From positions 16,767 through 80,766 of the IMG/VR virus record IMGVR_UViG_2558860994_000004: a stretch of 64,000 nucleotides of DNA; one strand, given 5' to 3'. This stretch comes from a virus. Lineage: Duplodnaviria; Caudoviricetes. Positions 6,084 through 42,006 of this stretch are shown here, in pieces. The position numbers and the translations under genes were made by a program. Each line of letters opens with the position of its first letter. Positions within the stretch are counted from its first letter, which is position 1. The notes under the pieces were generated by a model. That model was not told the DNA's origin. It did not search any database and saw nothing but the letters and a program-made list of their open reading frames with translations.

Positions 6084-7010
6084 ATGACAACGCCAAAACC
6101 AAGGGGCAGAAAGACCAAGCCGATTACTTATAACTTGCATGACCGGGGCTGGAAACACAACGGCCCTGACCGTAGCAACGTCGATATGCAGTCCATGATT
6201 CGCTTGATCAATAGTTCCGGTGTGCAGGAACTGGTTGATGAAGGCAAATTATGGGGCTACTGCGGTCATAACATTCGCCAGCGCTATGGCATGCGGCCAC
6301 CTGAAGCCATTGTCATTGAAGGCAAGATGGTTTACTTGGCACCTGCGTTTAAAACCATTGAAATTAAAGCGCATGCAAATGGTGACGTTACCCATCGTGC
6401 TGAGTTTACGACCAATGAAGCGGGTGAGTGGGCGCGTGAGCAATATCTGGCTCAGGTTGGTGGGTTTAGTACAGCGGTTAATTTTAAGCAATTTACCATG
6501 CCGAAACAGGTATCTGGTTTTTTTGGCTTTGATTATGTGCTGCAACCAAATTACACGACTAATGTTGGTGATGGCCAGCTTTATGACGGCCTGTTTTTGC
6601 CTGAGGATGTGTCAGCTGATAGTGGGGTTGCCTGTTTTGATAGTCTGACCAATGTTGAGCAGCTTGACCCGGCTAATGCTCAAATTGCCCGGATGCTAGA
6701 ACAGCAAATCTTAAGTGACATGCAGAACATCAATGCGCAATTGGGTTTGTTGCAGCATGCAGAACGTGCATATGACCATATTGAAGCCATGGCACAGCAG
6801 GAAGCGCGACGTGAACAGCGTGAGAACTTGCAGGCCCAGCGGCAGGCCGAACTGTACACGGGTATGGTTGGTGAGATTCGCTCATTTGATTCAGTGTGTG
6901 CAGAGGCAGATGAGTTGCTACAGCGCGCTATTAATCCTTATGACACCCGCACACGAACTGAACCGGCGAAGAAAAAACCCCGGCTGTTTTCATTTGGTAT
7001 GCGCTCATGA
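6084..7010 (+). CDS. Prohead (head-processing) protease, P1 Pro-like
   Basis: VQE..G.LWGYCGH..RQ..G..PE, NGDVTH..E, GGFS, FFGFDYVLQPNY motifs match recalled P1 Pro. Confidence 0.75.
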   Translation: MTTPKPRGRKTKPITYNLHDRGWKHNGPDRSNVDMQSMIRLINSSGVQELVDEGKLWGYCGHNIRQRYGMRPPEAIVIEGKMVYLAPAFKTIEIKAHANGDVTHRAEFTTNEAGEWAREQYLAQVGGFSTAVNFKQFTMPKQVSGFFGFDYVLQPNYTTNVGDGQLYDGLFLPEDVSADSGVACFDSLTNVEQLDPANAQIARMLEQQILSDMQNINAQLGLLQHAERAYDHIEAMAQQEARREQRENLQAQRQAELYTGMVGEIRSFDSVCAEADELLQRAINPYDTRTRTEPAKKKPRLFSFGMRS

Positions 7011-7816
7011 GTGCCGCCATTGCTGATCCGCTCAAGGCCATTCAGGATGCCTGGTATAAAACGCTGATTGATTTTCGGGCGTGGTACATGCCTGAAACCC
7101 AGCAAACGGCAGAATGGAAACAACGGGTACTGGGGCATGCCATTAAATCCTGCCCGGGCCGCATGATGGATGATGCCGAGGCCATGCTTGCCGAATACCG
7201 CAAAGCCCAGAATGCAGCGGTGGCTGGCGGTGCGACTGCGTTTATGCCGGTCATGTTGACGGCTACAGCCATTGTTGACCAGCCGCCCAACGTCAGCCAA
7301 CTGCCCAATGTGCCCTATTTTGTGGATGTCATTATTTCGGGCAAGCCTGCAAAAATGCGGCTCATTCCCAAGACAGTTCGCGCACAAATCGCGTTCTTTG
7401 CTACCAATCCTCACGATGCCCGTTCTATCTGTGATCAGGTGTGTGCCTACGTTACAGATGACATCAAACGTCGTATCGCCGTGCAGTTTGATTTTGGCGA
7501 CGGGATTAAGCGGCCTAGTCCATTCACCGTACTTGAAAATGAGCTTTTCCCTACGCCTGTACCCAGTGAAGCCATCAACCTGTCTATATTCACTGTTGAC
7601 GCGCAGCTGGTGGGTTATGTACCTCAGGTACTGGGCCTTGGCGGGCAGTTTGATAACACGGTGGGCAATGGATACAACCCTGACGGTTCGCCAATAGATA
7701 AGCCGCCGGTTAATGATTCAGTGGTTGTACAGGCCGATGCCTTTGACGTTGGCCATACCCGCGTGTTGGCGGATCCTGAAACTGGTATTGTGACCGTGGA
7801 GCAGCTTGATGATTAA
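7007..7816 (+). CDS. Phage morphogenesis protein (putative tail/head completion)
   Basis: 269 aa, coupled within late operon; function not recognised. Confidence 0.6.
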   Translation: MSAAIADPLKAIQDAWYKTLIDFRAWYMPETQQTAEWKQRVLGHAIKSCPGRMMDDAEAMLAEYRKAQNAAVAGGATAFMPVMLTATAIVDQPPNVSQLPNVPYFVDVIISGKPAKMRLIPKTVRAQIAFFATNPHDARSICDQVCAYVTDDIKRRIAVQFDFGDGIKRPSPFTVLENELFPTPVPSEAINLSIFTVDAQLVGYVPQVLGLGGQFDNTVGNGYNPDGSPIDKPPVNDSVVVQADAFDVGHTRVLADPETGIVTVEQLDD

Positions 7817-8351
7817 GGTGACTCCCAATGAAATTAATCCGGCTGATGAGATTGTACGCATTGATAGCCGCGTCATGGGCTTTAACGGTGAACCTGTCCG
7901 TATTCTGGCTGTTTGTTTTAAAGACACTGGGGAAATGCGGATTGAGAAAAAAGAAATTTACACCAATCTGCCGGTACCTGCGGAATTAAAGGCCAATACC
8001 ATTGTCGTGACGGACGCCATCCACCAGGTGCAAAACTGGGATATGCCGTTTAATCCTGAAAAAGACCTGGCTTCGGTTATCACGGTGTACCAGCAACGAT
8101 TCCGGGCCGGCCTGATTGATATTGAAAAATCCCTCAACCGCTATAACCCGAAAACCGTGCTGCAGGTGCGTAAGGTTGATGAAAAGGGCTTAAAACAGGA
8201 ATTTGACAGCAGCAGCTTAAACAATGGTCACGTTGCGGTATTGCTCTGCGTGTGGGCCAGCCAGCGTGTTGCGATCAGCCATAGTATTACACATGCACAG
8301 GGGATAGATGCCAAAGCCATAGATACCTCGATGTTGCCTTTTAGCATCTAG
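7806..8351 (+). CDS. Hypothetical phage protein upstream of terminase
   Basis: 181 aa ORF coupled to neighbours. Confidence 0.7.
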   Translation: MMIKVTPNEINPADEIVRIDSRVMGFNGEPVRILAVCFKDTGEMRIEKKEIYTNLPVPAELKANTIVVTDAIHQVQNWDMPFNPEKDLASVITVYQQRFRAGLIDIEKSLNRYNPKTVLQVRKVDEKGLKQEFDSSSLNNGHVAVLLCVWASQRVAISHSITHAQGIDAKAIDTSMLPFSI

Positions 8352-8359
8352 GGGGCAGC

Positions 8360-10351
8360 ATGGCGTTAAAACCCCTAAAAGACATACCTGAATGGTGGGA
8401 GCTGTGTGTACGCTACCGCTATGACATTTATGCTTTCGCGGTTGAGGCGCTGGGCATTACGCCCACATGGCAACAAGAACTACTATTTGAATCTGTCCAG
8501 TTTGATGGTAGCCGTACATCGGTTGCGTCAGGTCACGGCTGTTTTGGTAAAGGCACCAAAATCCGGCTGTTTAACGGCAAATGGAAGCGCGTTGAAAAAA
8601 TAACAATAGATGATCAGATCATGGGTAGCGATGGGATATCGCCCCGTGAGATCACCCATGTTGTGCGCGGCCAGCAGGAACTGTACCGCTTTAATTATGC
8701 CAATGGCGTCAGTCACGTTTATAACCGGTCACATATTTTGTGCCTGGTGTCGCTAGAAACAAAGAACGGCTGGAAAGCTGGCGACAAAATGGAAGTGCTA
8801 GTGTCCAAATGGCTCACATGGCCGGAAGATACCAAGCGCCAGTTTGCGGCCTACCAACTCAAGCATAAAAAATATCAGCCTGTTGCCATCACCAGTGCCA
8901 CGGCCTTAGGCGTAGGGGATTACTACGGCTTCGTGCTGGACGGTGACGCCACGTTTCTAGGCGCTGATGGCATGCTGCTACACAACACCGGTAAAACCGC
9001 CAGTGCGGGCATTGTGGCGCTCTGGCACCTACTGTTCTTTGATGAATCCATCATGATGTTTACTGCCCCGCAAATCGGGCAGCTGAAAAAACAAGTCTGG
9101 AAAGAAATCAGTATCAACCTGAGCCGCCTTAAAAGCGGCCCTTTGGCATGGCTGGCAGAATATGTCGGCTATCAGACTGAAATGGTCTACGTTAAAGGCT
9201 ATAAGGAAAAATGGCACGTCTTTGCCAAAACCGCACCGAAGCACCAGCCAACCAACTTGGCGGGGAACCATGGCGATAACTACATGGTGTGGGGTGATGA
9301 GGCCAGCGGTATTCCAGATGAAGTCTGGGACGTGGTACTGGGTGCATTAACGCATGCCGACAACCGGGCGGTGATGACATCACAGCCGACCCGTAACGCT
9401 GGCATGTTCTATGAAACACACCATGGCTTAAGTCACCGCTCAGACGGTATATGGATGGCGCTGACCTTTAATGGTGAAGAGTCGCCGCTTGTATCTGAGC
9501 AATCCCTTGAAGAGCAGCGCCAGAAATACGGCAGCCGTGATGATGCCCAGTACAAAATTCGTGTGCTCGGTGAATTTCCTGATTTAGCCGATGAATTTTT
9601 GATTACCAAGCGTATGTCAGAAGATATGTACGTTGGTAGCTCAATTTTTGAAGAGATTCACCAGTTTGGCTATGTGATTACCGTAGACGTCGGCGGCGGC
9701 GTGGGTCGGGATGATTCGGTTATTTGTGTGGGCAAGGTCTGGGGTGAAGATCAGTGGGGCGAGCGGGCAAGGCGGGTTGAAGTTGAAAAAATCCCGCTGT
9801 GTAAAAACAAGGACAATATTACTGAACTGTTTGGCATTATTAGTGAGCTGCTGGAAAATTATTCCAATGCTTTACTTGTGGTCGATGATAACGGCGCAGG
9901 TAAGGGTCTTGGCCAGTTGTTGCAACAGCATGGCATCTATTATTTGCCTGTGTATTGGGGCGGTGGCTGCTTTAACGAGGATAACCGCAAAGAGTATTAC
10001 AACAAGCGGGCGCTGGCCTATGTGTGCCTAAAACGTGCCATTGAGCATGGCCGATTCAAGATTAAAACCAACAAGTACAAAGTAAAGCTGCAAAACCAGA
10101 TTATTAAAATTCCCTATGGCTTTGATGAGCATTCACGCTACAAGCTGCTGGGTAAGGATGAAATGAAGCGTAAGGGTATCAAGTCGCCGGATATGGGCGA
10201 CGCGCTGGCGTTTTTCTTTCTTGAGAATGTGCATTACACCGAAGCGTACGAGAAAGCCGCGCTGGATGTGGATACACCAGAAGGACAGGAACAGGCCGCT
10301 AAAGCATCACGTTTTGAGCGATTAAGGCAGGCCGCACAAGAGCAATTATAA
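8360..10351 (+). CDS. terL: Terminase large subunit (P1 PacB-like) interrupted by an intein
   Basis: Walker A ASGHG/TGKT split by the intein; Walker B VWGDEASG; nuclease ITVDVGGGVGRDDS and SPDMGDALA. Confidence 0.9.
   Translation: MALKPLKDIPEWWELCVRYRYDIYAFAVEALGITPTWQQELLFESVQFDGSRTSVASGHGCFGKGTKIRLFNGKWKRVEKITIDDQIMGSDGISPREITHVVRGQQELYRFNYANGVSHVYNRSHILCLVSLETKNGWKAGDKMEVLVSKWLTWPEDTKRQFAAYQLKHKKYQPVAITSATALGVGDYYGFVLDGDATFLGADGMLLHNTGKTASAGIVALWHLLFFDESIMMFTAPQIGQLKKQVWKEISINLSRLKSGPLAWLAEYVGYQTEMVYVKGYKEKWHVFAKTAPKHQPTNLAGNHGDNYMVWGDEASGIPDEVWDVVLGALTHADNRAVMTSQPTRNAGMFYETHHGLSHRSDGIWMALTFNGEESPLVSEQSLEEQRQKYGSRDDAQYKIRVLGEFPDLADEFLITKRMSEDMYVGSSIFEEIHQFGYVITVDVGGGVGRDDSVICVGKVWGEDQWGERARRVEVEKIPLCKNKDNITELFGIISELLENYSNALLVVDDNGAGKGLGQLLQQHGIYYLPVYWGGGCFNEDNRKEYYNKRALAYVCLKRAIEHGRFKIKTNKYKVKLQNQIIKIPYGFDEHSRYKLLGKDEMKRKGIKSPDMGDALAFFFLENVHYTEAYEKAALDVDTPEGQEQAAKASRFERLRQAAQEQL
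8540..8986 (+). other. Mini-intein (149 aa, Hint domain only)
   Basis: Starts CFGKGT, ends YYGFVLDGDATF..LLHN, followed by Thr; too short for a homing endonuclease. Confidence 0.9.
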
Positions 10352-10445
10352 AAATATCCAATATGTAATTATAAATTTTAACATTAATTTACAATCAATC
10401 AGATTTTAAGGTAAATTGGTCTATAAATCTTTAATGGACATAAGT

Positions 10446-11009
10446 ATGGAATATGGACTGAGAACCCACAACTATTGTGCGTTTTATGTGGCTGAACCTT
10501 TTAACCCTTGCGCGTTAGGGGCATTCGCTACACATGATTTCTGTCATTATCAGATGTTAAAAGCATGGAAAGGAAAGGATACCACTTTCCCCTTCAGCGA
10601 TGCTCATGCTGCAACATATAGTGTGCGAGATAGTAGTGATTGGGAATCTACGCTCAAGCCTAGACTACGAAACAGACTACGCTTATCTAAAAATATTATC
10701 TTATTTTTGAGTGACTTTACTGGTAATTCAAGAGCTTTAAGAGAAGAGATTGACTATGGAATAAATACTCTAGGTCTACCCGTTATCATAATTTATCCTG
10801 AATTTGATAATATTGATAAAATTGTTGATAAGAATAATACTTTTAGATTAGCTGTGAAAAACTTATGGGCAAAATTACCAATTCTTAGAGATTCAATGCA
10901 TAAAGTACCAACATTACATTTACCTATGAAGAAAGAAACTATTAAAGATGGATTAAGTAATAGAATGTTTATGATTAACTCTAAAGGCTCACCTGCAAAA
11001 TATATTTAA
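10446..11009 (+). CDS. thsB: Thoeris ThsB-like TIR-domain protein (ORF track starts at 10416)
   Basis: DAH..YSVRDSS..LKPRLR.RL..SKNIILFLS..SRALREEIDYG TIR pattern; low GC. Confidence 0.85.
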   Translation: MEYGLRTHNYCAFYVAEPFNPCALGAFATHDFCHYQMLKAWKGKDTTFPFSDAHAATYSVRDSSDWESTLKPRLRNRLRLSKNIILFLSDFTGNSRALREEIDYGINTLGLPVIIIYPEFDNIDKIVDKNNTFRLAVKNLWAKLPILRDSMHKVPTLHLPMKKETIKDGLSNRMFMINSKGSPAKYI

Positions 11010-11020
11010 GAAGTTCACTT

Positions 11021-11860
11021 ATGGAAAATAAAGTTAAATTTTACGATAAAAAATTAATTGACGAGTTTTTGGTAAGAATTAGTACGATAAGTACGATTTT
11101 ATCCTTGGTGCTTATATTTATTTCAATTCCTGAGCAAATTAAAATTGCTTTTGGTGGAATATTTATTTTAGTTTTAATATTTATATATCAAAGAAGCTGG
11201 AGGGAAGCTAATGCTTTAAAAGATATTACTGTAAAAATTGATGAAAGTGATGTTAATATTAAAGTTGGTGATCTATTTAAAGAACCTGATTATAAAGTTA
11301 TAAGTTTTAATGAATATTTTGATACAGTAGTTGATGAGGTCTTAGTTAATGAGAGGTCTATTAATGGTATCTTTCTTAAAGAACATATAAGAATATCAAT
11401 AGATGAATTAGATAATAAAATCAAAAATTATCCATTTGAGCAAAACGAAATAATTGGTAGTAATCAAAACCGTCCTTATGGAAAGAAAACTAAATATAAA
11501 ATCGGAACGATATTTGTTTTTGAGGATTATATTTTAACCGCTTTTTCAAAGTTTGATGAGCATAATAGAGCTTACCTAACGATGCCTGAATACCTTGAAT
11601 TTTTAATAAATTTCTGGGATAAGGTTAATAAGGTATATGCACAAAAAAGTGTATCAGTACCTATATTTGGTTCTGGTATTACACGAATTAAGGAACATAA
11701 AAACATAAGTGATGAGGAATTACTTAAGATTATGATCTGGACTTTTAAAATTAGTGAAATGCGCTTTAAGTATCCTGCTAAGTTGTCCATAATTATTCAT
11801 AATGCAAAAATTAATCAAATTAATTTATTGGAAATCAAAAACACTGCAAATAGTCTTTAG
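11021..11860 (+). CDS. thsA: Type II Thoeris ThsA: two TM helices plus Macro domain
   Basis: Two N-terminal hydrophobic segments; IKVGDLF..KVISFNEYFDT..VPIFGSGITR macro-type motifs; adjacent to TIR gene. Confidence 0.85.
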   Translation: MENKVKFYDKKLIDEFLVRISTISTILSLVLIFISIPEQIKIAFGGIFILVLIFIYQRSWREANALKDITVKIDESDVNIKVGDLFKEPDYKVISFNEYFDTVVDEVLVNERSINGIFLKEHIRISIDELDNKIKNYPFEQNEIIGSNQNRPYGKKTKYKIGTIFVFEDYILTAFSKFDEHNRAYLTMPEYLEFLINFWDKVNKVYAQKSVSVPIFGSGITRIKEHKNISDEELLKIMIWTFKISEMRFKYPAKLSIIIHNAKINQINLLEIKNTANSL

Positions 11861-11876
11861 ATTTAATTATTACTTA

Positions 11877-16261: not shown

Positions 16262-16825
16262 ATGAACCTTATCCAGTTAGTTCAGGCAGGGTTTACCAGG
16301 GCTGGGGAAATCTCAAAAAGCCTGCAACAAGCTATTGCGCTTAAGCAAGACAAACTGCCTACCAATGGTGCGGCAGGACAGTTTTTAGCAAATGATTTGA
16401 CTTGGAAAACACCTGCCAGTGGTGGCAGTTCCAATATTACTTGGGAAACTATTGCTGTAATGACGGGTTGGACTTCTGGTTTCAAAACAGATAACACATG
16501 GCCTTTACAATTAGGGAAAGATACTTCAGGACGAATCTATATTCGGGGTGCTTTAAGAAACACGAGTGGTAACGGTAACACAAACCCATTTCTGACTATT
16601 CCTACAGCCTATAAACTTAAAGGACTAGAGAATCTTAATGGGACTTATCCTTTATCCTGTTTAGTTTATAGTGATAATTTTGGCAACTTTTCAACATCAG
16701 CCGCACCTTATATTAAATACGTAATGTCTAGTGGCGTTGCAACCTTAGTAGGTAGTACTAGCGCTACCAATAATTACGGCTATGTATTCCCTGAGCAATG
16801 CTTGGGTTTTGCAGCTAATCCCTAG
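16262..16825 (+). CDS. Fibre-like protein with variable beta-rich C-terminus
   Basis: GAAGQFLANDLTWKTP linker then lower-GC C-terminal domain. Confidence 0.65.
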   Translation: MNLIQLVQAGFTRAGEISKSLQQAIALKQDKLPTNGAAGQFLANDLTWKTPASGGSSNITWETIAVMTGWTSGFKTDNTWPLQLGKDTSGRIYIRGALRNTSGNGNTNPFLTIPTAYKLKGLENLNGTYPLSCLVYSDNFGNFSTSAAPYIKYVMSSGVATLVGSTSATNNYGYVFPEQCLGFAANP

Positions 16826-18062: not shown

Positions 18063-18077
18063 TTAAACCAGGTGAAC

Positions 18078-18103
18078 AAAAGGCGCATAACAGCGCCTTT
18101 TTT
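18078..18103 (+). terminator. Intrinsic terminator
   Basis: AAAAGGCGC-ataaca-GCGCCTTTTTT. Confidence 0.75.
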
Positions 18104-18117
18104 ATGCCTGATGCAAT

Positions 18118-18203: not shown

Positions 18204-19976
18204 ATGACCGTTTTAAGTGCAGAAATCGAAAAGGCGTATAAAGAGCAGCAGGATCAAATTGCTCAGTGCGCGAATTATTACTATGGTGGCTTTAATGCAA
18301 CTGAAATTGCTCAGTTTGACAGTATTGCCATTGCCCCTGAATCACGTCCAGACCTGGTAAAAAGCCTGTTTGATTCGATTGGTGAAGAAGGTCAGGCTAA
18401 TATTGATAATGCAGTGCGCTGGGGTGTTGAACAATATCAAGCGCGTAATGGCGGCCAATTGCCTCATCCGTCAGTCATTGCCAGTGCGTTAGGTGCAGGC
18501 CTGCAAGCAAGCACAATTAACCCTGAAAACTTAAGCAAAGCGATTGCTGGTTTCGATAGTATCAGTAACCTGCAATATGAGCAGGCCAGTATCGTGCCAG
18601 CATTGACCGTAGCGACCATTGCAAACGTCATTGCCTATGCATTGCCTATTTTTGCGCTGATTCCCAACAATAATCAGTCAGTTAAAGTGCCATTGGTGGC
18701 CATGCGCTTTATTACTGATACGGCGTTTGGTGCAATGGGTGCAGGTGAATATCTGGACGGCGAAAATGCCGCAAAACCCTATGCTGAAGGCCGCTTCCGC
18801 TTTGCAATGGCTAAAGGCGCTGGTAATACTTACAGCGTAGTTGCCCATACCTGCTATGACGACTTTAAAGCCAAAACTCCAGACACCGCTACGCCGTTGC
18901 TGCCATTCTGGTCAGGTCTGGTATCTGTAAAAATCAATGGCATGGAAGTAGGTCATACCCGTGATGACCGCCTGCTGTCTGTTGATAAAGGCCAGATTAG
19001 CCTGATTCCAAACCAGAAGGGCGTAAAAGTTGGTAACACAGTTTACAAACTCACTGGCAGCACTATCAATCTGGATACCAGCTCTATTAGTGTGACACTT
19101 GATGGGGCACTGCCTGCTGGTGCTTCTATCGAAGTGGCCTTGGTTGCCAATTTTGAAGCCCGTGACGCTAACAAGAAATTCAAGCTCAATCCGGTTGGTG
19201 TGAGCGTTGAAGCGGAATATGACTCACTGGTGGCTGCGCCATTTGCCATGCGTGTTAATGCGTCATACAGCACACAAAGCCAGCTGGCCAATGAATTAAA
19301 CCTGGGCTTTGTGGGTGCTGCATTATCAATTATGCAAGGTAAGTTCTTTTTGGAACAAACCATTCGATTGCTCAAAGAAGTGAAAGAACGCGCTGTTTTA
19401 AATGGTCGTGGCTACTTTGATATGTCGCGTGGTGTAACTGGTAATTTGTCTGCCGTTGCCAATACCACCGGTGATTTGTTTGCCGAAGTGCTCAAAGTCA
19501 TTAAGAAAGGTAAGCGTCGTATCCGCCGTGCTTCAGGTGGCGCAACTACCAGCTTTGACCTGTACGTGGGCGACAACGGTGAAATCTTCTTCACTACGCT
19601 GTCTGCTGATAAGTTCACACCGACTGGTGTCAGCTCAACGTATGGCGAAATTGTGCGTATCGGTACGCTGGCTGATGGCACCGATGTTTATCACACGCCT
19701 AATGCGCAGGGTGTTATTGAAGAGTCTGACGACAATAAGACCTTTGAAATGCTGCTGATTGGTAAAGGGAATGAGCCAGTGCGCAACCCATTGGTTGGTC
19801 ATATCCCTAACCCGCCTGTGGTACGTGAAGCGTTTGCCGATACCCGTGAGTTGGTGATGGATATTCACGGCAAAATGGCTGCGGAATTGAACCCGCTGGA
19901 ACGCTACGCTGACCAGTGTGCGGTGCTACAAGTGGTTAATGCACCAGCCATTCCATTTGACCCACCAGCCAAGTAA
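18204..19976 (+). CDS. Major capsid protein, P1 gp23-like (ORF track starts at 18072)
   Basis: LPHPSVIASAL, AFGAMGAGEYLDG..Y..RFRF match recalled P1 gp23; AAGGTG RBS before ATG 18204. Confidence 0.8.
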   Translation: MTVLSAEIEKAYKEQQDQIAQCANYYYGGFNATEIAQFDSIAIAPESRPDLVKSLFDSIGEEGQANIDNAVRWGVEQYQARNGGQLPHPSVIASALGAGLQASTINPENLSKAIAGFDSISNLQYEQASIVPALTVATIANVIAYALPIFALIPNNNQSVKVPLVAMRFITDTAFGAMGAGEYLDGENAAKPYAEGRFRFAMAKGAGNTYSVVAHTCYDDFKAKTPDTATPLLPFWSGLVSVKINGMEVGHTRDDRLLSVDKGQISLIPNQKGVKVGNTVYKLTGSTINLDTSSISVTLDGALPAGASIEVALVANFEARDANKKFKLNPVGVSVEAEYDSLVAAPFAMRVNASYSTQSQLANELNLGFVGAALSIMQGKFFLEQTIRLLKEVKERAVLNGRGYFDMSRGVTGNLSAVANTTGDLFAEVLKVIKKGKRRIRRASGGATTSFDLYVGDNGEIFFTTLSADKFTPTGVSSTYGEIVRIGTLADGTDVYHTPNAQGVIEESDDNKTFEMLLIGKGNEPVRNPLVGHIPNPPVVREAFADTRELVMDIHGKMAAELNPLERYADQCAVLQVVNAPAIPFDPPAK

Positions 19977-21562: not shown

Positions 21563-21850
21563 ATGAACACAACAAAGATTTTAGGTGAAGCGGTCGGTGT
21601 GCAGTGGCAGGGTGTTACTGACAATACCGAAACCAATACAGTGGCCGGTTTAACGCAAGCCATTGTGATTGGCCGGTTTAAACGGGGTGAAGTTGGACGT
21701 CCCATGGTGATTACCCCAAACAATATTCGTGGTCAGCTGGGGCATGAACCTACCAATCCTTATTACATCGCTGTGCAGGCCTGTTTAGATGCTGGTGTGC
21801 CCAGTGTGCAGGTGTTACGTGTAGCTGATTCAATTCAACCTGAGGAATAA
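21563..21850 (+). CDS. Stand-alone tail sheath N-terminal-like domain (copy 1)
   Basis: VIGRFKRG..ITPNN..LG..YIAVQACLDAGV..VLRV resembles the sheath N-terminal motif. Confidence 0.65.
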   Translation: MNTTKILGEAVGVQWQGVTDNTETNTVAGLTQAIVIGRFKRGEVGRPMVITPNNIRGQLGHEPTNPYYIAVQACLDAGVPSVQVLRVADSIQPEE

Positions 21851-21856
21851 AAAATC

Positions 21857-23155
21857 ATGACGCAAATTAGACTTTCAGGTGCAGGCGTTTTATCACTAGG
21901 CGCTACAGTTAGCCCAGCGCTGGTCATTAGTGCAACGACAAAAAGCTATCTGGGTGATGATGCATCCCTTGATATCGCTTTTTTTGCGAAAGTGGCTAAT
22001 CCGCTATCAGGTGATGATATCACCGTACGTTTAACCTGGTTTGACTCAACTACAGACGATCAAATTTTTAAGATTCAGGGCACATTAAGCAATGATGAGG
22101 ATGATTTGTCATCCATTCAGGCAGTCGCTGATGCTGCGGAAATCTTTGGAGAATTTAGTCTAATTCTTGGTTCTGGCCTGATTACTGCGGTTAAAAATTG
22201 CGTGGCTTTTAATGCATACAATGGCTTAAACCGTAACAGTTTTGCATTGCCGCTTCCAAGTGATCAGCCACCACCATTTGATGCCGATCAGGTCTATGAC
22301 ATTTTAACGGCTGAAGGTGTTCGACCAGCCTATCTGGTGCTGCCGACCCTGGATGATCTGGAGCTTTACAACACGGTTTATCGTGCAGCTGACAAGCTCA
22401 ACATTCCCATGGACTGTGAGATTGACCCAACCATTACACCAGAGCAGGCTGCTGACTTGGCGCTTAATCTGGATGCACAGGATCAGCGCGTACAACTAAT
22501 TTGGTCGCCTAATATCTGCCGTCCGCGTGATGCCGTATCCCTACGGGGCCGCAAAGTACCAGCCTACGCCATTGGCGCATACCTTGGTATGAAGTTACTT
22601 CGCAATGCACGTACAACAGCAGAGGGTATCCCCAAAATTGGCGACCCGGTAGCCGGTTACGATTTTCCATTCACCATGAAAGGCCTAGAAATGCGGCCTG
22701 ACGTGGTATTTAACGAGCAAACACTGGAAATGCTGGCTAAAGCTAAAGTGAATACTGTACGCCGCATGAGTTTTGGCGGGGGTGTGCGCTTTGTTCTCAG
22801 TGATGGCTTAACCCAGCGTCAAAGCAAGAACAGTGCGCTGCGCCTGGTCAATGCCACAGAAATTGCCTGCTATACCAGCAATATAGCAACCGACATTCTA
22901 AATCGTCACATGCTTAGACGCATGAGCAGCTACTTAACTGATGCTAGCCGCGAAATTGAAGCCTTTTTGAAAAAATGTGCGGCACCTACGGTTGGCCTGT
23001 TGCAGCCTGCCGCAGATTTGGGCGGTGCGCCGTATGTATTTAGTTTAACGCCCGATGCTGACTATCCGTTTGAACGTGTTCGGCTGTATATGGCGCGTGG
23101 TATAGACGGTATGACCCGTGCTGCAATTTTTGATAAAGACATTCTTAGTAAGTAG
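21857..23155 (+). CDS. Contractile tail sheath protein
   Basis: C-terminal LAKAKVNTVRR..LSDGLTQ..LRLVNA domain typical of sheath. Confidence 0.8.
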   Translation: MTQIRLSGAGVLSLGATVSPALVISATTKSYLGDDASLDIAFFAKVANPLSGDDITVRLTWFDSTTDDQIFKIQGTLSNDEDDLSSIQAVADAAEIFGEFSLILGSGLITAVKNCVAFNAYNGLNRNSFALPLPSDQPPPFDADQVYDILTAEGVRPAYLVLPTLDDLELYNTVYRAADKLNIPMDCEIDPTITPEQAADLALNLDAQDQRVQLIWSPNICRPRDAVSLRGRKVPAYAIGAYLGMKLLRNARTTAEGIPKIGDPVAGYDFPFTMKGLEMRPDVVFNEQTLEMLAKAKVNTVRRMSFGGGVRFVLSDGLTQRQSKNSALRLVNATEIACYTSNIATDILNRHMLRRMSSYLTDASREIEAFLKKCAAPTVGLLQPAADLGGAPYVFSLTPDADYPFERVRLYMARGIDGMTRAAIFDKDILSK

Positions 23156-23170: not shown

Positions 23171-23962
23171 ATGATTTTTGGACATAAACGTAAAACCCCG
23201 GTGCCAGCGCTGATTGTGCCTGGCTTTGATTCTGTAGCCGTGGCGATTAGCCAGGCTGCAACCCTGACTGCCAGTGAACAACGTGAGCAGCAATCATTTA
23301 TTGAGCATGTGCGTGAACAGGCGCTGCATATCGTGTCGCATATGGCTGATACGATTATTGAAGGCAAACTAGAAGAAGGCGAGCTGCCCACTGACCTGCT
23401 GGACGGCCTGATGATCGAGGCACTGGATGGACTGGACGACGACGATAGCGACATTGAAGGCGCATTGGCCGGGTCCATTCAAGATGCATTGTCGTCTTTC
23501 GACGTGGATGATTCTGTCATCAATGAAATGTTCGGTGATAATGTCACTGCTGCCGATGCTGCGATTGAAGCTGCTGCTGCAACCATTATCGCGAATATGC
23601 CCGATGAAGGTGAACCACTGGATGAATTTGCCCGTGAATTCATCTTCGGTGAGCCAGATGACATTGAGGAGGGGTTTGACTCTATCAGTGGTAAGCGCTT
23701 GACTAAGGCACAGACTAAAGCCAAAGTCGGGGCGTTCTCGCATAAAAAAGTGGGTGGCCGTAAGGTTGCTTATAAAGGGGTACTGGCCATTCGTAAAGGC
23801 ATCAAAACCATTGTGAACAAGCGACTGCCTGGGCAGAAAATCCGTCAATCTGCTGACCAGAAACAGGCGATTAAAAAAGCCCGCCTGAAAGCACACACGG
23901 CTAATTCCATTCGCCAGCGTGTGAAATCGTTTAAGAAAGGTCGCAAGATGGGTTTGTATTAA
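23171..23962 (+). CDS. Putative internal head protein: acidic N-domain, very basic C-domain
   Basis: D/E-rich middle, K/R-rich last about 90 aa; two FDS[IV] motifs. Confidence 0.65.
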   Translation: MIFGHKRKTPVPALIVPGFDSVAVAISQAATLTASEQREQQSFIEHVREQALHIVSHMADTIIEGKLEEGELPTDLLDGLMIEALDGLDDDDSDIEGALAGSIQDALSSFDVDDSVINEMFGDNVTAADAAIEAAAATIIANMPDEGEPLDEFAREFIFGEPDDIEEGFDSISGKRLTKAQTKAKVGAFSHKKVGGRKVAYKGVLAIRKGIKTIVNKRLPGQKIRQSADQKQAIKKARLKAHTANSIRQRVKSFKKGRKMGLY

Positions 23963-24615: not shown

Positions 24616-25149
24616 ATGGCTGGTTTAAACCTTGCGACATTAACCAATAAAGATGCATATATTGAAAAAATCCGTGCCGCACTGGAAACCGCAACCGGGC
24701 AACAAATCCCGGCGGGTACCGTAGAGGTAGGGAAAGTCAAACGGGTGAGTGGGGTAAGCGCGGCACCTGTTACCTTTGCATTTGCTGGTGGTCAGTCATT
24801 GACCCTTTATGTACGTGCGACTGCCGATGTATTTAAGGCTGAACTCAATGGCAAGGTCATCGTCCTGTCCGGTGATTTCAGTAACGACTGGAAACAAACC
24901 TTTGACGCTGCTGTGACTGGTGTGGCCAAGCTGGTACGTGATGGCCAAAAGGCGAAACAGGCAGAAAATGCACGTCAAAAAGTTAAAATTCCGCGTGCAC
25001 CCAGCCAAAGCGTTACGGCAAAAATCAAGGAAGTGCAAGAACAGGAAGCCCAGCTTGATCAGCGTATCACTGAAAAAACTGCCCAGCGTGACCAGTTAAA
25101 AGAAAAACTGGAACAGGCCCGCGCGCAAATTGCAGCAGTGACCCAGTAA
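24616..25149 (+). CDS. hdf: Hdf-like protein (stand-alone DarA N-domain homolog)
   Basis: VKRVSGVSAAPVTFAFAGGQSLTL..ELNGK parallels DarA FKRNKVAQVAVTYDMADGQSVTI..QMNNR in this window; coiled-coil tail. Confidence 0.65.
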   Translation: MAGLNLATLTNKDAYIEKIRAALETATGQQIPAGTVEVGKVKRVSGVSAAPVTFAFAGGQSLTLYVRATADVFKAELNGKVIVLSGDFSNDWKQTFDAAVTGVAKLVRDGQKAKQAENARQKVKIPRAPSQSVTAKIKEVQEQEAQLDQRITEKTAQRDQLKEKLEQARAQIAAVTQ

Positions 25150-36113: not shown

Positions 36114-36114
36114 C

Positions 36115-38064
36115 ATGCGCCGGAATATCGATATTTTCACCCAGACTCATGCACCGCATTCCAGCCGGTTTGTGGCAGGTTTTGATTCCATTAACAGCGG
36201 GTCCTGTGCAGTAGGTTTTATTGCTGGCCAATATCGCCGTATCCCGGCGCTTGTGGCTGAAACAGCGACCGATGATGACCAATGGCGAGTTGTTAATCTA
36301 AAAGGCGGTAAGGGCAATGAAGCGCATTTTGATGCGATTGCGGTACTGGGCGCGGTAGATGATCAACAGGCAGCTGATATGACGTTAATGCAGTTTGGCC
36401 GCCTATTTGATTCTGTGGCTATGGATGTGCTGACAACCAATACCAATGGCCTAATGCGCCATTTAGATACCAGCCACTACCACGCTAAACCCAGCACCAT
36501 TGCCCCATGGCAACTTAAGGCCATGCAGGACGTGATTTGTGCTGAAAAACCTATGTGGGATGACATCAATCTGGTATCCCATAAAGGCCAAACCGCCAAT
36601 TTGCTGCTGGATATGCAACGCCATGATGACCACGATGGGTTGTTATCCCAGTTTGACGGATTGCCAAATTTGCTTGAGCAGCTTGGCGTTGAAGAGCCGG
36701 GCTTTGATGCGCTCATTGTGCAGTATCAATATCTTGAAAAGCTGACCGCACAATTGCATACCGCTATGAAAAATGCGGGCAAGGCTGGTGTGCAAGTGGT
36801 GAATGTCACCGTTAGCAAGCCATTCAAGCGTAACAAAGTGGCGCAAGTTGCGGTGACTTACGATATGGCAGACGGCCAGAGCGTCACGATTCTCTTTCAC
36901 AACCCTGACAGCACACCGTCCAAACTGGCGCCAGCTGATACGCTCATTTCATGGAAAATCCAGATGAATAACCGTGATATTACTGGCGCTATTCAACCGA
37001 ACCAGGGTGAAGGTATTGCCTTACCAGTGCTGGCTGGCCGTATTCTAAAACTGGTCAATCAGAATAGTGACCGGTTTAAGCGCTACCAGGTTAAAAAAAC
37101 AGAGCAGGCGCAGGCTTTGGCGGATGCCGAACAGCGTATCACTGATAAAACCGCCCTCGATAAAGCGCTGGACGACGAAATGACTGATTTACAGCAACAG
37201 ATTGATGCAGCCCATGAGCAGGCCAAGCAACAGCAGGAACTGGCTCAGCAAAATAGCGAAGTTCTTAAGGGGCTTATGGCTGATATTGCAGCAACTGCTG
37301 ATCTGGGTGAAGCCACTACCAAAAATTACTTCTTTAAAGAAAAAGAGGTGGATGGCACCAAGTTTCATTTGTCAGTAGACCCATTTGGTGATGGCCTGAC
37401 GGTTTGTTTATCAATCATGCCTGCCACTGGCGGCGAGCAGACAGAAGAACAGGCCTTTACGCTAGAACAACTGCAAAACGGTGGTTTTGAGGAAGCTAAG
37501 GCCTATCTAAAAACACTGGATGAAAAGTTTAATCAGGCCGTGGTTGAGGATGATTCGATTCCTGCTGAAGATATTCAGTTTGTGAGAGATATCGAGGCAG
37601 GCACGGTAGACGGTCTGGCCGAAGATAATTTCAAGCGCTTATATGGTATTGCTCAGGAAACCAAAAACAATGGGGATGAGGAAACCGAAGGCGCAGCAGT
37701 TAGTGCTGCAACGGTGATGGCCGAGAAACTTAAACCTGTTGCAACTGAAAAAGGTATCTCGCTTGAGCGCCTAAATACCGCGATTGATGATGAAGATGTA
37801 CTGGAAATCCTAGATTCCATTGAAGCCTTGCAAGCTGCCCTTAATGCAGCACCTGAACCTGAGCCTGAACCAGCTGCTAACCCGGATCAGGAGTTTCTGC
37901 AAAACATCATTGCAGGCACTGTGGACGCCACAACTGTTGATATGGATCACATCATAGAACTGGGCGAGAAGTACCCAGACGATGCAGCATTCAATGCATT
38001 GTATGAGCAGGCTCTCAATGCGATTAACAAGGCTGAGCAAGAAGCCGCCAAGAGTTTGGGTTAA
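36115..38064 (+). CDS. darA: Defence-against-restriction protein DarA
   Basis: DarA_N (PFKRNKVAQVAV..DGQSVTILFHNPDSTP..DITGAIQP) and DarA_C (DQEFLQNIIAGTVD..LYEQAL) domains. Confidence 0.85.
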   Translation: MRRNIDIFTQTHAPHSSRFVAGFDSINSGSCAVGFIAGQYRRIPALVAETATDDDQWRVVNLKGGKGNEAHFDAIAVLGAVDDQQAADMTLMQFGRLFDSVAMDVLTTNTNGLMRHLDTSHYHAKPSTIAPWQLKAMQDVICAEKPMWDDINLVSHKGQTANLLLDMQRHDDHDGLLSQFDGLPNLLEQLGVEEPGFDALIVQYQYLEKLTAQLHTAMKNAGKAGVQVVNVTVSKPFKRNKVAQVAVTYDMADGQSVTILFHNPDSTPSKLAPADTLISWKIQMNNRDITGAIQPNQGEGIALPVLAGRILKLVNQNSDRFKRYQVKKTEQAQALADAEQRITDKTALDKALDDEMTDLQQQIDAAHEQAKQQQELAQQNSEVLKGLMADIAATADLGEATTKNYFFKEKEVDGTKFHLSVDPFGDGLTVCLSIMPATGGEQTEEQAFTLEQLQNGGFEEAKAYLKTLDEKFNQAVVEDDSIPAEDIQFVRDIEAGTVDGLAEDNFKRLYGIAQETKNNGDEETEGAAVSAATVMAEKLKPVATEKGISLERLNTAIDDEDVLEILDSIEALQAALNAAPEPEPEPAANPDQEFLQNIIAGTVDATTVDMDHIIELGEKYPDDAAFNALYEQALNAINKAEQEAAKSLG

Positions 38065-38076
38065 GGGGGTAAAACG

Positions 38077-38421
38077 ATGTTGACTGCATTAGAAAAAGCC
38101 AAAGCCCTTAAAGAGTTTAGAGAATTGCGCCTTAAACTGGCTGGTGATGGATTAACCGCGCTGGACAAGGCCAAATCGTTAAAGCGCTTTCGTGAATTGC
38201 GTTTGTTGCTGGGTGGACAGAATCAACCAGAAGCACAGGAACCCGCCAATAATCCGCTGTACCAGTCCATTCTGGAAGGCCGGGAAGTCACACTAGAATT
38301 GCTGGAGCAGGTCAAGGCAGAGGCCGAAAAAGACTTGAACCATCCACAGCTGATTCCCGCTGTTCTTAAACTTAAAGAGCAGGTTGAACCATTACAGGTG
38401 CATCAGAGTGAGGCGGCTTAA
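38077..38421 (+). CDS. DdrA-like small Dar accessory protein
   Basis: 114 aa between darA and ddrB-like gene as in P1; tandem repeat LTALEKAKALKEFRELRL / LTALDKAKSLKRFRELRL. Confidence 0.6.
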   Translation: MLTALEKAKALKEFRELRLKLAGDGLTALDKAKSLKRFRELRLLLGGQNQPEAQEPANNPLYQSILEGREVTLELLEQVKAEAEKDLNHPQLIPAVLKLKEQVEPLQVHQSEAA

Positions 38422-41400
38422 ATGGTGTCGAAAACGGATAAAACCGCCTTAAATCAAATTGACGTCGTTGCAAATCCCATTGCAGCGATTGATGCGATGA
38501 TTGATGCGCTTAAGCACCAGCAGCACGAAAACTACGAGTTTTTAACGGGTGAACCGGTTGCATCCATCCAGTCCGGCCAGATTAAGCCTGATGAGAAGGG
38601 TCATTACATCAAGGCGGCTGTTAACTGGTTTAGGGAGTGGATGGACAAAAATAGCCATGGGCAGGAATTTGAAAATGTGCAGCTAGGAACAATCATTATT
38701 GCGCCTAGTGGCATTAAATCAGCCATGAGTCATAAACCCCACCCAATTGATGTTCAGGCGCTACCGGCCTTGCCTTTGATTATTGAAAAAGCTGTTGTTC
38801 TCAGTAGAACAATGGATGATATGGGCAAACCATTAGAAAATATTGTGGTCGCGGCACCCATCGAAATTGACGCCAAAAAATATTATATGGTTGTTCGTTT
38901 AAGACGGCACACTGAAGATAAAAACGATAGACCCCGCTTTTATACGCAAGCGGTTACTATTGCAGAGGACATAAAAAAAGGACACATCCCTTCAGACCAA
39001 GTGACTGGGCAAAATAAATTGCTTACTCAAAATGGAGGACGTGTCCGTTTATTAAATGTACTGTATAGCGCTCTCAGTGTCAATAATCCAGCGACCAGCA
39101 TTGTTACAGGCCGTACAAACACTGTAAAAACCCCAAAAGGCACCAAACTTGATACGGTTTTTGCACTGGTTGAAGCTGACAATGTAATTGCATCACACGA
39201 TAGCACTGGCGGGACTAATCCTAAATTTCCGCAAGAATTGCAGCCGCGTGACCGTAGCCGCGAAGCCAGCCAGACATGGGTGAAAAAAACAGCGGCCAAT
39301 CTGGATCCTGATAGTCTGGGTAAAACCAGCCGTGCAGACACCGGTGCGCCGATTGTTGGTGATGACTTGATTGTTGAATCCGGGAACGGTCGCACCATGG
39401 CGATTCAATTAGCGTACGCACGTGGTACCGCAGAGGAATACCGCGCTTGGCTGGTTGATGAGGCAGAATACTTTGGATTTAAGCCTGAACAGGTTGAAGC
39501 CTTTAAGCAGCCTGTACTGGTGCGTATCCGTAAAACTGAGATTGACCGTGCCGCATTTGCAGTAGAAGCGAACCAGGATGATAAGCTGTCTTTGAGTGCC
39601 ACGGAACGCGCCAAGGCCGATGCTCGCCGTATTGATGACAATATGGCGATGCTATTTAACCCAAGCGAAGATGGGGATTTACTGGCGGCCAGTAACCAGA
39701 AATTTATACAGGCTTTTTTACAGTCCATTGGTGATACCGAAGCTGCTCAGTATATTGGAACCGATGGCAAGCCAACGCAGGCACTAGTTTTACGCATTAA
39801 AGCAGCGGTATTTAGCAAGGCTTATAAGGATGACCGTCTTTTAGAGATGGTGGCAGACCAGACCAAGCCAGACTTAAAAAATATGCTGAATGCATTAAGT
39901 GTTGCGGCGCCCAAGTTTATTGAGGCCCAAGCCATTAGCCGGTTACAAACCGAAGATTTATCCAGTCAAATTGTTGATGGTATTGAAAGTGCCACTGACC
40001 AAAAGGTTATTGATGCGATTATTGCCGCTGCAAACGTGGTGATGACCGCAAAAAATGACAACCATGACGTGACCGAGTTTGTTAAGCAGCAAGGCCTGTT
40101 TGGTGATTTACCGGATGGTGTGGCAGAGCTGGCCGTATTCCTATCCAAAAATGCCAGCAGTGCCAAAAAGATGAGTCTGTTATTCAAAGCTATGGCCAGC
40201 TTTTTGGAAAAACAGGCAATTGACCAGAGTAACAATAGCCTGTTTGGTGATCCTGAGCCGCTGAGCATGCGAGAGGTCATTCAGCATGCTGTTGGTGTAC
40301 TTGAGCAAGAATATGGCGATAAAGCCAATTTAAGCATGTTTGATGATTTAGGCTTTCTAGAGCCTAAGTTATTTGACCAGATTTTTAAGTCCTACGCCCG
40401 CACTGGGGAATGGACACCAACAAAATATCTGGAGCAAATGGATGCGTTGCGTCGTATTTTCTTTGCAAACGGCTGGGGACGTGAAAGACGTACTAACGGC
40501 TTCATGATCAAGCCTTGTGGTGAACGCAAAGTACGTCTTATTAAATATGCCGATGATGATAAATTTTTTGTCAGCATCGTTGATTTAGATGAAAAATTAA
40601 TCACTGAAATTGTAGGTTGTGATAATAAGGCCATTCCTGAAATCATTGCTGAAATTAATAAATATCTTAATGAAGATCAGCAACTATCATTAGAAAAGTC
40701 TGGCTTTGATTCGGTTGATGGCAATGATCAGATTGCTATGGTGCCTAAGGTTGATGCTAGCAATACATGGATGAATGGGCAAATCATTCCATGGTCAGAA
40801 AATCCTGAGACTGATTTTGCGCATTCCATGAAATTGCCATCTTCCGGTCAGCTTGGTGATAAGGTTTGTTTTCATGTCTGGGCAAATGAAAGTAAAGAGT
40901 CAAGGGTGAGAATAGATGCATTTATTGCAGATATTAAGTTTAAGACCAGTAAAGTATGGTATGGACTGGCCATGCGCATTGCTGATACGCGATTTGCGAC
41001 ACTGATTTACTTACCTAGTGGGACTTTTGATATTTTAACCAGTCATGAAAGTGTAGACGGTTATGATGCCTTACTCACCATGGAAGAGATATGTCGGCAT
41101 AACTGTTTGCGTACTGATATTGATAAGCAAGCCCATGAAGCCGCCACGTCACCTTACAATGATTTGCCAGAGCCGACTGAAGCACAAAAAATTTCAGGGG
41201 ATTATGTGAAGGGCAAGCTATCAATTGCGGGTGTAGATATAGCGATTGAAAATCCGGCTGGTTCTACACGCTCAGGCGTTGACGCCAGTGGAAAGGCTTG
41301 GCAAACCACGATGAAGCATCACTATGGCTACATTGAAAATACCATGGGTGCCGATGGTGATGAGCTGGATGTATTTGTTAAAACTGGTTTGAATGAATAT

Positions 41401-42006
41401 ACCGGCATTGTGTATGTCATCCGCCAGCTTGATCCAGAAAGCCTAGATTTTGATGAACACAAGATCATTATTGGCGCGTCTACATTAGAAGAAGCCCAGC
41501 AAATTTATTTGTCTAATTATGAATCGGGCTGGCAGGGGATGGGCAGTATTGAAACGCTATCCATTGAAGATTTTAGGAACAGGCTGGGTAAGACCTGGAC
41601 GCAGTTTGATTCGATTGGCCAGCACGTTGAGCCAATCACTGTTCTGAATCAGCTTATTGGCATCTTGCAGGCCAAAAAAATCACTGACCAGCAGCAGTTA
41701 ATGGAACTGCGCGAGGAAATTCGCACCAATGAGCAGACCGCCCGTTATTTGATGGGTGGCCGTAAGGGATTGTGGGGCCGCACAACCAATGCGGACAATA
41801 AACGCAGTGCTGAATTGTCAAATTTACGCCTGAAATACCAGCTGGCACTGAATCATTTTATTGCCCTGTATTCCATTGACAAGCGGGAAGCCCGTACCTT
41901 TAATTTACGCCATGGCGTCAATTCTTTTGATTCCATCGAAAATGACCAGATACACCCAGTATTTCATGCGATTTATGGGCATGGAAACCACTGGAACAGC
42001 GCATAA
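38422..42006 (+). CDS. ddrB: DdrB-like polyvalent protein: LPD3-like + ddrB-ParB + inorganic pyrophosphatase-like domains
   Basis: ELQPRDR..GAPIVG..VESGNGR (ddrB-ParB); IAIENPAGS.R..HHYGYI..DGDELDVF..DEHKII (iPPase of polyvalent proteins). Confidence 0.8.
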   Translation: MVSKTDKTALNQIDVVANPIAAIDAMIDALKHQQHENYEFLTGEPVASIQSGQIKPDEKGHYIKAAVNWFREWMDKNSHGQEFENVQLGTIIIAPSGIKSAMSHKPHPIDVQALPALPLIIEKAVVLSRTMDDMGKPLENIVVAAPIEIDAKKYYMVVRLRRHTEDKNDRPRFYTQAVTIAEDIKKGHIPSDQVTGQNKLLTQNGGRVRLLNVLYSALSVNNPATSIVTGRTNTVKTPKGTKLDTVFALVEADNVIASHDSTGGTNPKFPQELQPRDRSREASQTWVKKTAANLDPDSLGKTSRADTGAPIVGDDLIVESGNGRTMAIQLAYARGTAEEYRAWLVDEAEYFGFKPEQVEAFKQPVLVRIRKTEIDRAAFAVEANQDDKLSLSATERAKADARRIDDNMAMLFNPSEDGDLLAASNQKFIQAFLQSIGDTEAAQYIGTDGKPTQALVLRIKAAVFSKAYKDDRLLEMVADQTKPDLKNMLNALSVAAPKFIEAQAISRLQTEDLSSQIVDGIESATDQKVIDAIIAAANVVMTAKNDNHDVTEFVKQQGLFGDLPDGVAELAVFLSKNASSAKKMSLLFKAMASFLEKQAIDQSNNSLFGDPEPLSMREVIQHAVGVLEQEYGDKANLSMFDDLGFLEPKLFDQIFKSYARTGEWTPTKYLEQMDALRRIFFANGWGRERRTNGFMIKPCGERKVRLIKYADDDKFFVSIVDLDEKLITEIVGCDNKAIPEIIAEINKYLNEDQQLSLEKSGFDSVDGNDQIAMVPKVDASNTWMNGQIIPWSENPETDFAHSMKLPSSGQLGDKVCFHVWANESKESRVRIDAFIADIKFKTSKVWYGLAMRIADTRFATLIYLPSGTFDILTSHESVDGYDALLTMEEICRHNCLRTDIDKQAHEAATSPYNDLPEPTEAQKISGDYVKGKLSIAGVDIAIENPAGSTRSGVDASGKAWQTTMKHHYGYIENTMGADGDELDVFVKTGLNEYTGIVYVIRQLDPESLDFDEHKIIIGASTLEEAQQIYLSNYESGWQGMGSIETLSIEDFRNRLGKTWTQFDSIGQHVEPITVLNQLIGILQAKKITDQQQLMELREEIRTNEQTARYLMGGRKGLWGRTTNADNKRSAELSNLRLKYQLALNHFIALYSIDKREARTFNLRHGVNSFDSIENDQIHPVFHAIYGHGNHWNSA

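Follow-up and report, generated by a model that had tools for sequence, protein, structure and literature searches.

A recurring F-D-S motif in head and cargo proteins of a P1-like prophage as a candidate cleavage code of an Asp-directed prohead protease

The tetrapeptide F-D-S-[I/V/L] recurs in a small set of proteins encoded by a 64,000-nucleotide stretch of DNA (IMG/VR record IMGVR_UViG_2558860994_000004, positions 16,767 to 80,766; here called the window), and we propose that it marks where these proteins are cut as the phage head matures. The window is a stretch of a chromosomal contig (G000:C3:592063-656062), and the element within it is an integrated myovirus-type prophage distantly related to coliphage P1. 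BLAST searches identified homologs of P1 Pro, PacB, gp25/26, gp21, BplA, portal, DarA, DdrB, DarB, and PmgG at 22 to 42% identity, and the closest cultured phage is Acinetobacter phage vB_AbaM_ABMM1 (capsid identity of 55%), which carries the same set of motifs. Five proteins carry the motif: the homolog of the P1 protease Pro, the major capsid protein in its N-terminal propeptide, the homolog of P1 gp21, DarA, and a DdrB-like polyvalent protein. Comparison with homologs makes it likely that the prophage's own head-maturation protease recognizes and cleaves F-D-S-[I/V/L], or more widely F-D-[S>A,G,D]-hydrophobic. An earlier reading of this DNA from its letters alone (the sequence-only reading) had suggested an Asp-directed prohead protease site that also tags cargo, and the comparative evidence supports that suggestion with a motif wider than FDS[IVL]. 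We infer the cutting itself, the exact scissile bond, and the presence of the gp21-like protein inside the head.

Six-frame scans and scans of open reading frames (ORFs) reproduced all 12 copies of FDS[IVL] that the sequence-only reading had reported, and they lie in five ORFs. Two are in the protease gene (positions 6636 and 6885; ORF 6084-7010), three in the capsid gene (18315, 18369, and 18552), two in the gp21-like gene (23225 and 23675; ORF 23171-23962), two in the gene for DarA (36181 and 36406), and three in that for the DdrB-like protein (40705, 41605, and 41926). Composition alone predicts 0.65 copies in the 19,989 amino acids (aa) of the window, and within-protein shuffles (n = 5,000) averaged 0.67 copies and reached 5 at most. 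The rough figure of ~0.1 expected in ~3000 aa that had been given earlier agrees with the ~0.1 computed for the 3,048 aa of the five proteins. When the peptides of the window were ranked without bias, FDS was the most over-represented tripeptide (15 versus 2.9 expected) and FDSI the most over-represented tetrapeptide (7 versus 0.2 expected). The same genome outside the window (2,721 ORFs; 899,621 aa) holds 23 copies, or 0.026 per 1000 aa, against a density of 3.9 per 1000 aa in the five prophage proteins, which are the only proteins genome-wide with two or more copies. Within the window, other hydrophobic residues in place of F were not enriched (7 versus 7.3 expected), nor was Glu in place of Asp (FES[IVLMA], 1 versus 0.9 expected). 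The sequences flanking the 12 sites are unrelated to each other, and the copies therefore do not stem from duplication. The observation is real and highly non-random.

The remaining FDS tripeptides within genes continue, as had been claimed, as FDSS (8202), FDST (22040, in the tail sheath), and FDSN (43668, in DarB). The FDSS copy was considered as a thirteenth site and was rejected because it lies inside a conserved block and not in a variable linker; in relatives this block (RKVD..G....FDS...NNGH.AVLL.VWA) is strongly conserved and apparently folded. The ORF that contains it (7806-8351; 181 aa; phrog_4179) lies just upstream of the terminase gene, and its conserved FDS[SM] is probably structural.

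The presumed enzyme is encoded at 6084..7010 on the plus strand, as are the other four motif-carrying genes and all of their sites. It is a prohead protease of 308 aa homologous to P1 Pro (29.8% identity over 215 aa by blastp; E value of 3.5e-17). Its catalytic domain (residues ~1-155) is followed by a linker that is disordered, by a long helix (196-260), and by a C-terminal tail. A tblastn search with this protein gave matches in P1, P7, D6, SJ46, and others. Neither the protease nor the capsid protein nor the gp21-like protein had a Pfam match, and a profile search of PDB sequences returned chance coiled-coil matches only. In an AlphaFold2 (AF2) model, residues 1-152 form a beta-rich domain, and residues 7-154 found T4 gp21 as their top PDB match (5jbl; Z of 9.3; root mean square deviation of 2.7 Å over 126 aligned residues); the next structural matches include herpesvirus proteases (Z of 4.4 to 6.2). 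As modeled, the protease has the T4 gp21/herpesvirus-assemblin fold. Three residues, H62 (in GHxxR), R65, and S129 (in GGFS), occur in every one of 137 family members, and H104 is found in 130. R65 lies three residues past the presumed catalytic His, and it is tempting to speculate that it is the partner of the Asp/Glu carboxylate.

Two sites of predicted self-cleavage lie beyond the catalytic domain. F185-D186-S187-L188 (6636..6647) is in the disordered linker 157-188, and F268-D269-S270-V271 (6885..6896) is at the break between helices 196-260 and 268-283; in the AF2 model the sites go with a low-confidence linker or a helix break (157-188 and 261-267). Across 27 protease homologs, F185, D186, and F268 never vary, and conservation of S187 is at least 90%. 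A candidate first self-cleavage site, Y167-D168-G169-L170 (6582..6593), occurs just past the catalytic domain and within the same linker, where the predicted local distance difference test (pLDDT) score is below 50. Most family members have Phi-D-[SG] at this place (Phi, hydrophobic), directly after a conserved PNY..N segment.

The pattern extends across the protease family. A profile search of 1.84 billion representative proteins returned 324 clusters of Pro-like proteases (E value of ≤1e-3), and motifs were counted in 136 full-length representatives that are pairwise less than 50% identical. The C-terminal tails of these proteins contain 433 copies of Phi-D-[SAG]-Phi versus 41.6 after shuffling (maximum of 62), and their catalytic domains, at equal total length, contain 29; the Glu version was not enriched in the tails (30 versus 36.8 in shuffles). 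Among the 433 tail motifs, Asp is preceded by Leu in 230 and by Phe in 120 and is followed by Ser in 307, Ala in 75, and Gly in 51. The few family members that have no strict matches still carry copies of the TLDSG or LLDSS type or are fusions. By these counts the working motif of the prophage, F-D-[S>A,G,D]-hydrophobic, is this lineage's narrower version of an [L/F]-D-S-hydrophobic motif that the family shares.

The sequence-only reading had proposed aligning homologs as a check on motif conservation, and in such alignments F-D is kept almost without change at equivalent positions among homologs that are 25 to 60% identical, with flanks that vary. Seven relatives whose capsid proteins are 30 to 57% identical to that of the window were compared; FDS is among the most enriched tripeptides in four of them, and the copies sit in homologs of the five window proteins. 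The pattern FD[SAGD][IVLMA] is ~7- to 80-fold denser in these homologs than in the rest of the phage in the seven relatives (Fisher p of 5e-5 to 1e-12), p values that overstate independence and are indicative only, because these phages share descent and the group of five was originally picked out by its motif in the window. The wider, family-type motif occurs in Xanthomonas phage Rb1, where Phi-D-[SAG] is found in the capsid propeptide, the protease tail, the gp21 homolog, and an extension of the portal. The Rb1 portal (annotated as a "capsid assembly protein"; 760 aa; L023:26942-29224) has a C-terminal extension with five copies of Phi-D-[SAG]-Phi between residues 565 and 733, which suggests that in that lineage the portal is trimmed by the same protease.

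The major capsid gene (18204..19976; phrog_1014) encodes a protein of 590 aa that, in the AF2 model, consists of a helical N-terminal propeptide (residues 1-113) followed by an HK97-type fold; hhalign matched it to P1 gp23 with a probability of 94.5%. Its start is most likely the ATG at 18204 and not the GTG at 18072, which is probably 44 codons too long, because the homologs (571-608 aa) have an N terminus, MTVLS, that matches the former, a ribosome-binding site (aaggtga) precedes it, and a hairpin and T-run (18078-18105) lie inside the longer ORF. From this start it follows that the sites are at F38, F56, and F117. In the model the first, F38-D39-S40-I41 (18315..18326), falls within loop 28-49; of 52 capsid homologs, 50 have FDS there, and conservation of F38, D39, and S40 is at least 90% in alignment A2. 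The second, F56-D57-S58-I59 (18369..18380), lies at the break between helices 50-59 and 61-81, and among the 52 homologs FDSI is either kept or, in another sub-clade, replaced by a GFDSA copy ~5 residues further on. The third, F117-D118-S119-I120 (18552..18563), marks the junction of propeptide and mature protein in a linker (110-128; pLDDT below 50) that divides the helical propeptide from the HK97-type fold in the model. D118 is invariant in 29 sequences, and the site reads GFD[S/D][IVA] or FDSL in the 52 homologs. A cut after D118 would remove 118 residues and leave a predicted mature capsid protein of 472 aa and 50.6 kDa. In the variable linker upstream of this third site, extra FDS/YDS copies have been gained and lost among homologs, a turnover that looks like the behavior of a short functional motif and not of a structural core. 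In P1, gp23 loses 120 residues through a cut between E120 and S121 (Edman; PMC9024508).

The DarA homolog (36115..38064; 649 aa) is similar to P1 DarA (E value of 5e-14) and has the Pfam domain DarA_N at residues 197-318 (4.7e-28). Five [FY]-D-[SAG] sites that precede the DarA_N fold are retained by DarA relatives. F23-D24-S25-I26 (36181..36192) is kept as GFDS[IMV] in four relatives, and F180-D181-G182-L183 (36652..36663) is kept as FDGLP, also in four. The relatives have FDSV, FDSI, or YDSV at F72-D73-A74-I75 (36328..36339), FDAC or FDAV at F98-D99-S100-V101 (36406..36417), and YDSI or FDSI at F197-D198-A199-L200 (36703..36714), which directly precedes the fold. The copies FDAI, FDGL, and FDAL, which the sequence-only reading had placed ahead of DarA_N, are present at residues 72, 180, and 197, before or at the start of the domain. 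A cut at D198 would leave a predicted mature DarA of 451 aa, and the leader of residues 1-24 may be a removable targeting peptide. The F197-D198|A199 site aligns with L-L-E68|A69 of P1 DarA, for which the cryo-electron microscopy (cryo-EM) model does not include residues 1-69 (PMC12810830).

The DdrB-like protein (38422..42006; 1194 aa) is 42% identical to P1 DdrB over residues 230-630, and Pfam recognizes LPD3 (64-167), ddrB-ParB (239-371; 6.4e-35), and InPase (920-1054) domains in it; together with DarA_N, a DarB-type methyltransferase-helicase, and an Hdf-like gene, the ddrB-ParB match shows that the P1-type Dar cargo set is present. All of its sites are outside the Pfam domains. F762-D763-S764-V765 (40705..40716) lies between recognized domains, F1062-D1063-S1064-I1065 (41605..41616) lies 8 residues past the end of the pyrophosphatase-like domain at 1054 and is kept as TW.[QE]FDS in the relative G237, and F1169-D1170-S1171-I1172 (41926..41937) is the third strict copy. 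F640-D641-D642-L643 (40339..40350) is kept as ANLSMFD[DS] in two relatives, G237 and G182. In the G237 homolog (L007:13085-15934), nothing matches window residues 642-879, and the alignment resumes at residue 880; the gap is thus bounded by the FDD copy at 640 and by a YDA copy at 881 (Y881-D882-A883-L884; 41062..41073), a candidate site that opens the realigning block. Other conserved junctions in DdrB likewise bear the motif, and cargo modules may be swapped as cassettes with protease sites at their borders.

The last of the five proteins is the P1 gp21 homolog (23171..23962; 263 aa; phrog_1053), which is 28% identical to P1 gp21 (gene 21, L022:4592-5407; E value of 5.6e-7). Cuts at its two sites are predicted to give a leader (residues 1-20), an acidic helical piece (21-170; isoelectric point [pI] of 4.1), and a very basic tail (171-263; pI of 12.0). 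At F19-D20-S21-V22 (23225..23236), F is kept in 104 of 105 homologs (with one Tyr), D in all 105, and S in 99, with variable flanks. At F169-D170-S171-I172 (23675..23686), on the boundary between the acidic and basic parts, F and D are kept in all 105, with S in 94 and A in 11. A protein atlas placed the gp21-like protein only in hypothetical clusters, plus one "putative tail tube protein." P1 gp21 was not detected in the P1 virion proteome, which fits a degraded scaffold and equally a non-structural assembly factor. We know of no scaffold protein identified in P1. The acidic body, the tail of pI 12, the invariant F-D-S between them, the absence from virions, and the absence of an identified P1 scaffold make the gp21 family a candidate for a scaffold or core component that is cleaved, in place of its "baseplate or tail tube" label. 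The sequence-only reading had held the motif to be confined to head proteins; its "acidic/basic protein" is this gp21 homolog, whose status as a head protein is a matter of inference.

P1 itself presents a different pattern. In its genome (AF234172), 13 copies of [LMIVF][LMTIV]E[SA] are found in gp23, Pro, DarA, and gp21 (1,834 aa) versus 24 elsewhere (27,253 aa; odds ratio of 8.1), a lead only, as the pattern was chosen after the data had been seen and was anchored on one mapped site. P1 Pro bears MFES, LLES, and LFES, and it has W128, W130, and L160 where the family has F, [ST], and N. On these motifs, P1 would be the Glu-using exception in the family set, and the same set of proteins would carry a motif of the Glu type in P1 and one of the Asp type in the window prophage. 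The Glu-type copies in P1 include L-L-E68|A69 of DarA, in agreement with the first residue seen by cryo-EM, and may be unmapped Pro sites. A bolder generalization, to which we give somewhat less than an even chance, is that the assemblin-fold proteases of the P1 Pro type are all Asp-directed ([L/F]-D|S-hydrophobic) with P1 as a derived exception, that the code, beyond trimming propeptides, delimits exchangeable modules of polyvalent anti-defense cargo and so lets a single gene product be unpacked into several proteins within the head, and that gp21 is a cleavable scaffold or core protein that leaves a 10-kDa peptide of pI 12 with the DNA.

We hypothesize that the protease is co-assembled into the prohead, where its putative Ser129/His62 catalytic center would cut between Asp and the following small residue (F-D|S). 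The helical scaffolding propeptide of the capsid protein would be fragmented and released at D118|S119, and the protease would cut its own linker and tail at about residues 168, 186, and 269 and so destroy itself; fragmentation of propeptide and protease would allow the pieces to leave the head. The gp21-like protein would yield three pieces, namely a short leader, an acidic segment, and a very basic tail of 93 aa, of which only the tail would remain with the DNA. DarA would lose ~198 N-terminal residues, and the C-terminal half of the DdrB-like protein would be split into separate modules. The leaders before the first site, of 24 aa in DarA and 20 aa in the gp21-like protein, could work like the capsid-targeting sequence of T4.

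An alternative explanation is that nothing is cut at the motif. P1 DarB is loaded by an N-terminal targeting peptide (PMC9024508), docking sites are typically short linear motifs in disordered linkers, and multiple copies in the protease tail could tether the protease to the shell, so the motif might be an uncleaved docking or assembly peptide, a capsid-targeting signal that binds a common pocket, for example on the inside of the capsid, on the portal, or at an exosite of the protease. We consider this unlikely. The DarB of the window has no copy of the motif, though P1 DarB is the sole P1 cargo with a proven targeting peptide. The motif is found where the P1 homologs are cut, at the capsid propeptide junction and the DarA N terminus (PMC9024508, PMC12810830), and also at interdomain boundaries deep within DdrB, and the order of an acidic and then a small residue matches the known cuts of this fold (E|S in P1; T4 and SPN3US cut after Glu).

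Besides the kinship of the relatives and the late choice of the P1 pattern, several points weigh against cleavage at the motif by the prophage protease. The P1 record annotates gp21 as "baseplate or tail tube," a poor fit for a head substrate. To our knowledge, processing of P1 DdrB is not known. The paper on ABMM1, which used SDS-PAGE and identification by liquid chromatography-mass spectrometry, gives no N termini. Finally, hhalign pairs the P1 bond E120|S121 with E126|Q127 of the window capsid protein, 8 residues downstream of D118|S119, and pairs F117-D118-S119 with M111-D112-A113 of P1; E126 is nearly invariant (at least 90% conserved). The sequence-only reading had equated GFDSI of this capsid with MLESV of P1: the two do share the same linker, and their exact positions are 8 residues apart by hhalign. 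It follows from this alignment that the final N terminus of the capsid protein could be Q127 as well as S119 or that both bonds are cut.

The same alignment could mean that the motif is an upstream specificity determinant and that the cut falls elsewhere, for instance after capsid Glu126 as in P1 or at some other bond close by, and ABMM1-type capsids do have H-H-E-S-V at that place, like L-E-S-V of P1. We give this even less weight than the docking peptide, since no acidic residue occurs at a fixed downstream spacing from the other 11 sites and the other substrates do not show the [YHQ]-E-[QSA] context again; moreover, E126 opens the first helix of the mature fold in the model, and its conservation can therefore be structural. 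Least probable of all is that a different protease, whether from the host or present as a peptidase domain in the cargo itself, is responsible or that the motif is a by-product of ancestry or composition: the P1 record calls DdrB a "possible metallopeptidase" and polyvalent proteins have reportedly been discussed as possibly self-processing, but the flanking sequences are unrelated, the host proteome does not have the pattern, the motif follows the Pro-like family through 136 representatives and occurs in the tails of the proteases themselves, and Pfam finds no peptidase domain in the DdrB-like protein of the window.

Cleavage at the motif by the prophage's own protease can be placed beside several known systems. 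The window and P1 share a homologous protease (30% identity), capsid protein, DarA, DdrB, DarB, portal, and gp21; their capsid propeptides are of 118 (predicted) and 120 residues, respectively, the sites of both have an acidic residue followed by Ser/Ala, and each lineage has its motif on the same protein set. They differ in that the window has Asp in place of Glu before the proposed cut and a strict Phe preceding it, in that its DdrB bears sites whereas P1 DdrB is without any P1-type motif, and in that it is chromosomally integrated whereas P1 is a plasmid prophage. The prohead protease of T4 recognizes sites of the LxE type, (L/I)-x-E. T4 gp21 has the same fold as the modeled window protease (Z of 9.3 to 5jbl), and both systems have N-terminal leaders ending in the motif and use a single short motif that recurs in the protease itself, in the propeptide of the capsid protein, in packaged internal proteins, and in proteins of the core or scaffold kind. 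However, T4 gp21 and the window protease have no detectable sequence similarity, the window cut would follow Asp and not Glu with P2 (Phe) and not P3 as the specificity residue, and the window sites also lie inside large multidomain cargo and not just in N-terminal propeptides.

The proteases of the giant phages phiKZ (gp175) and SPN3US (gp245) cut after A-x-E in many head and ejection proteins and also cleave themselves (PMC10052503). As in the window, there are several motif copies per propeptide and one motif for many proteins (PMC10052503), but the motif and the P1 residue differ. In SPN3US, apart from self-cleavage of the protease, only N-terminal propeptides are cut (PMC10052503), whereas the window motif also marks internal module boundaries in DdrB. 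Herpesvirus assemblin, a very remote relation, shares with the window protease the fold class (Z of 4.4 to 6.2), Ser after the cut, and a Ser/His catalytic center (the latter two presumed in the window), but it recognizes (V/L)-x-A|S, with Ala and not an acidic residue before the cut. Like the motif-tagged substrate systems, the window has one motif in the propeptide, the protease, and the core-like and packaged proteins that is rare elsewhere; the Glu before the cut that characterizes T4- and phiKZ-type systems is absent, as Asp is invariant in the window motif. A literature search found no Asp-directed prohead protease within the limited set of papers covered. The principle is thus known from T4 and the giant phages, and what would be new is the Asp specificity with Phe/Leu before and Ser after, its extent over an unannotated family, its use at internal boundaries of cargo modules, and the implied role of gp21.

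Other genes of the window include a DarB-type ORF (42069-48485) with N6_Mtase and SNF2/helicase domains and an Hdf-like gene (24616-25149; phrog_1620). The large terminase gene (8360-10351; PacB homolog) has a Hint/intein-like insertion (Pfam Hom_end_hint at residues 61-173), and its match to PacB is in two parts, residues 1-60 and 208-623. The tail sheath gene (21563-23155) seems to be split into a 95-aa ORF (21563-21850) followed by a 432-aa ORF, in which the match to the sheath profile begins only at profile position 116 of 531.

If the proposal is correct, it would supply the rule by which the head proteases of a large, unannotated family, one without a Pfam model, cut their substrates; the sole experimental point for this family, E120|S121 of P1 gp23, is apparently atypical. 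The mature virion proteins and the injected anti-defense cargo of P1-like prophages of Acinetobacter, Moraxellaceae, Pseudomonas, and Xanthomonas would become predictable from sequence. The removable tag could serve for cargo loading, much like the packaging system of T4, and cleavage between domains would explain how polyvalent proteins are delivered as separate modules. It would also suggest a role for P1 gene 21. Finally, the prophage and P1 would offer a natural Asp-versus-Glu pair for studies of specificity in assemblin-fold proteases.

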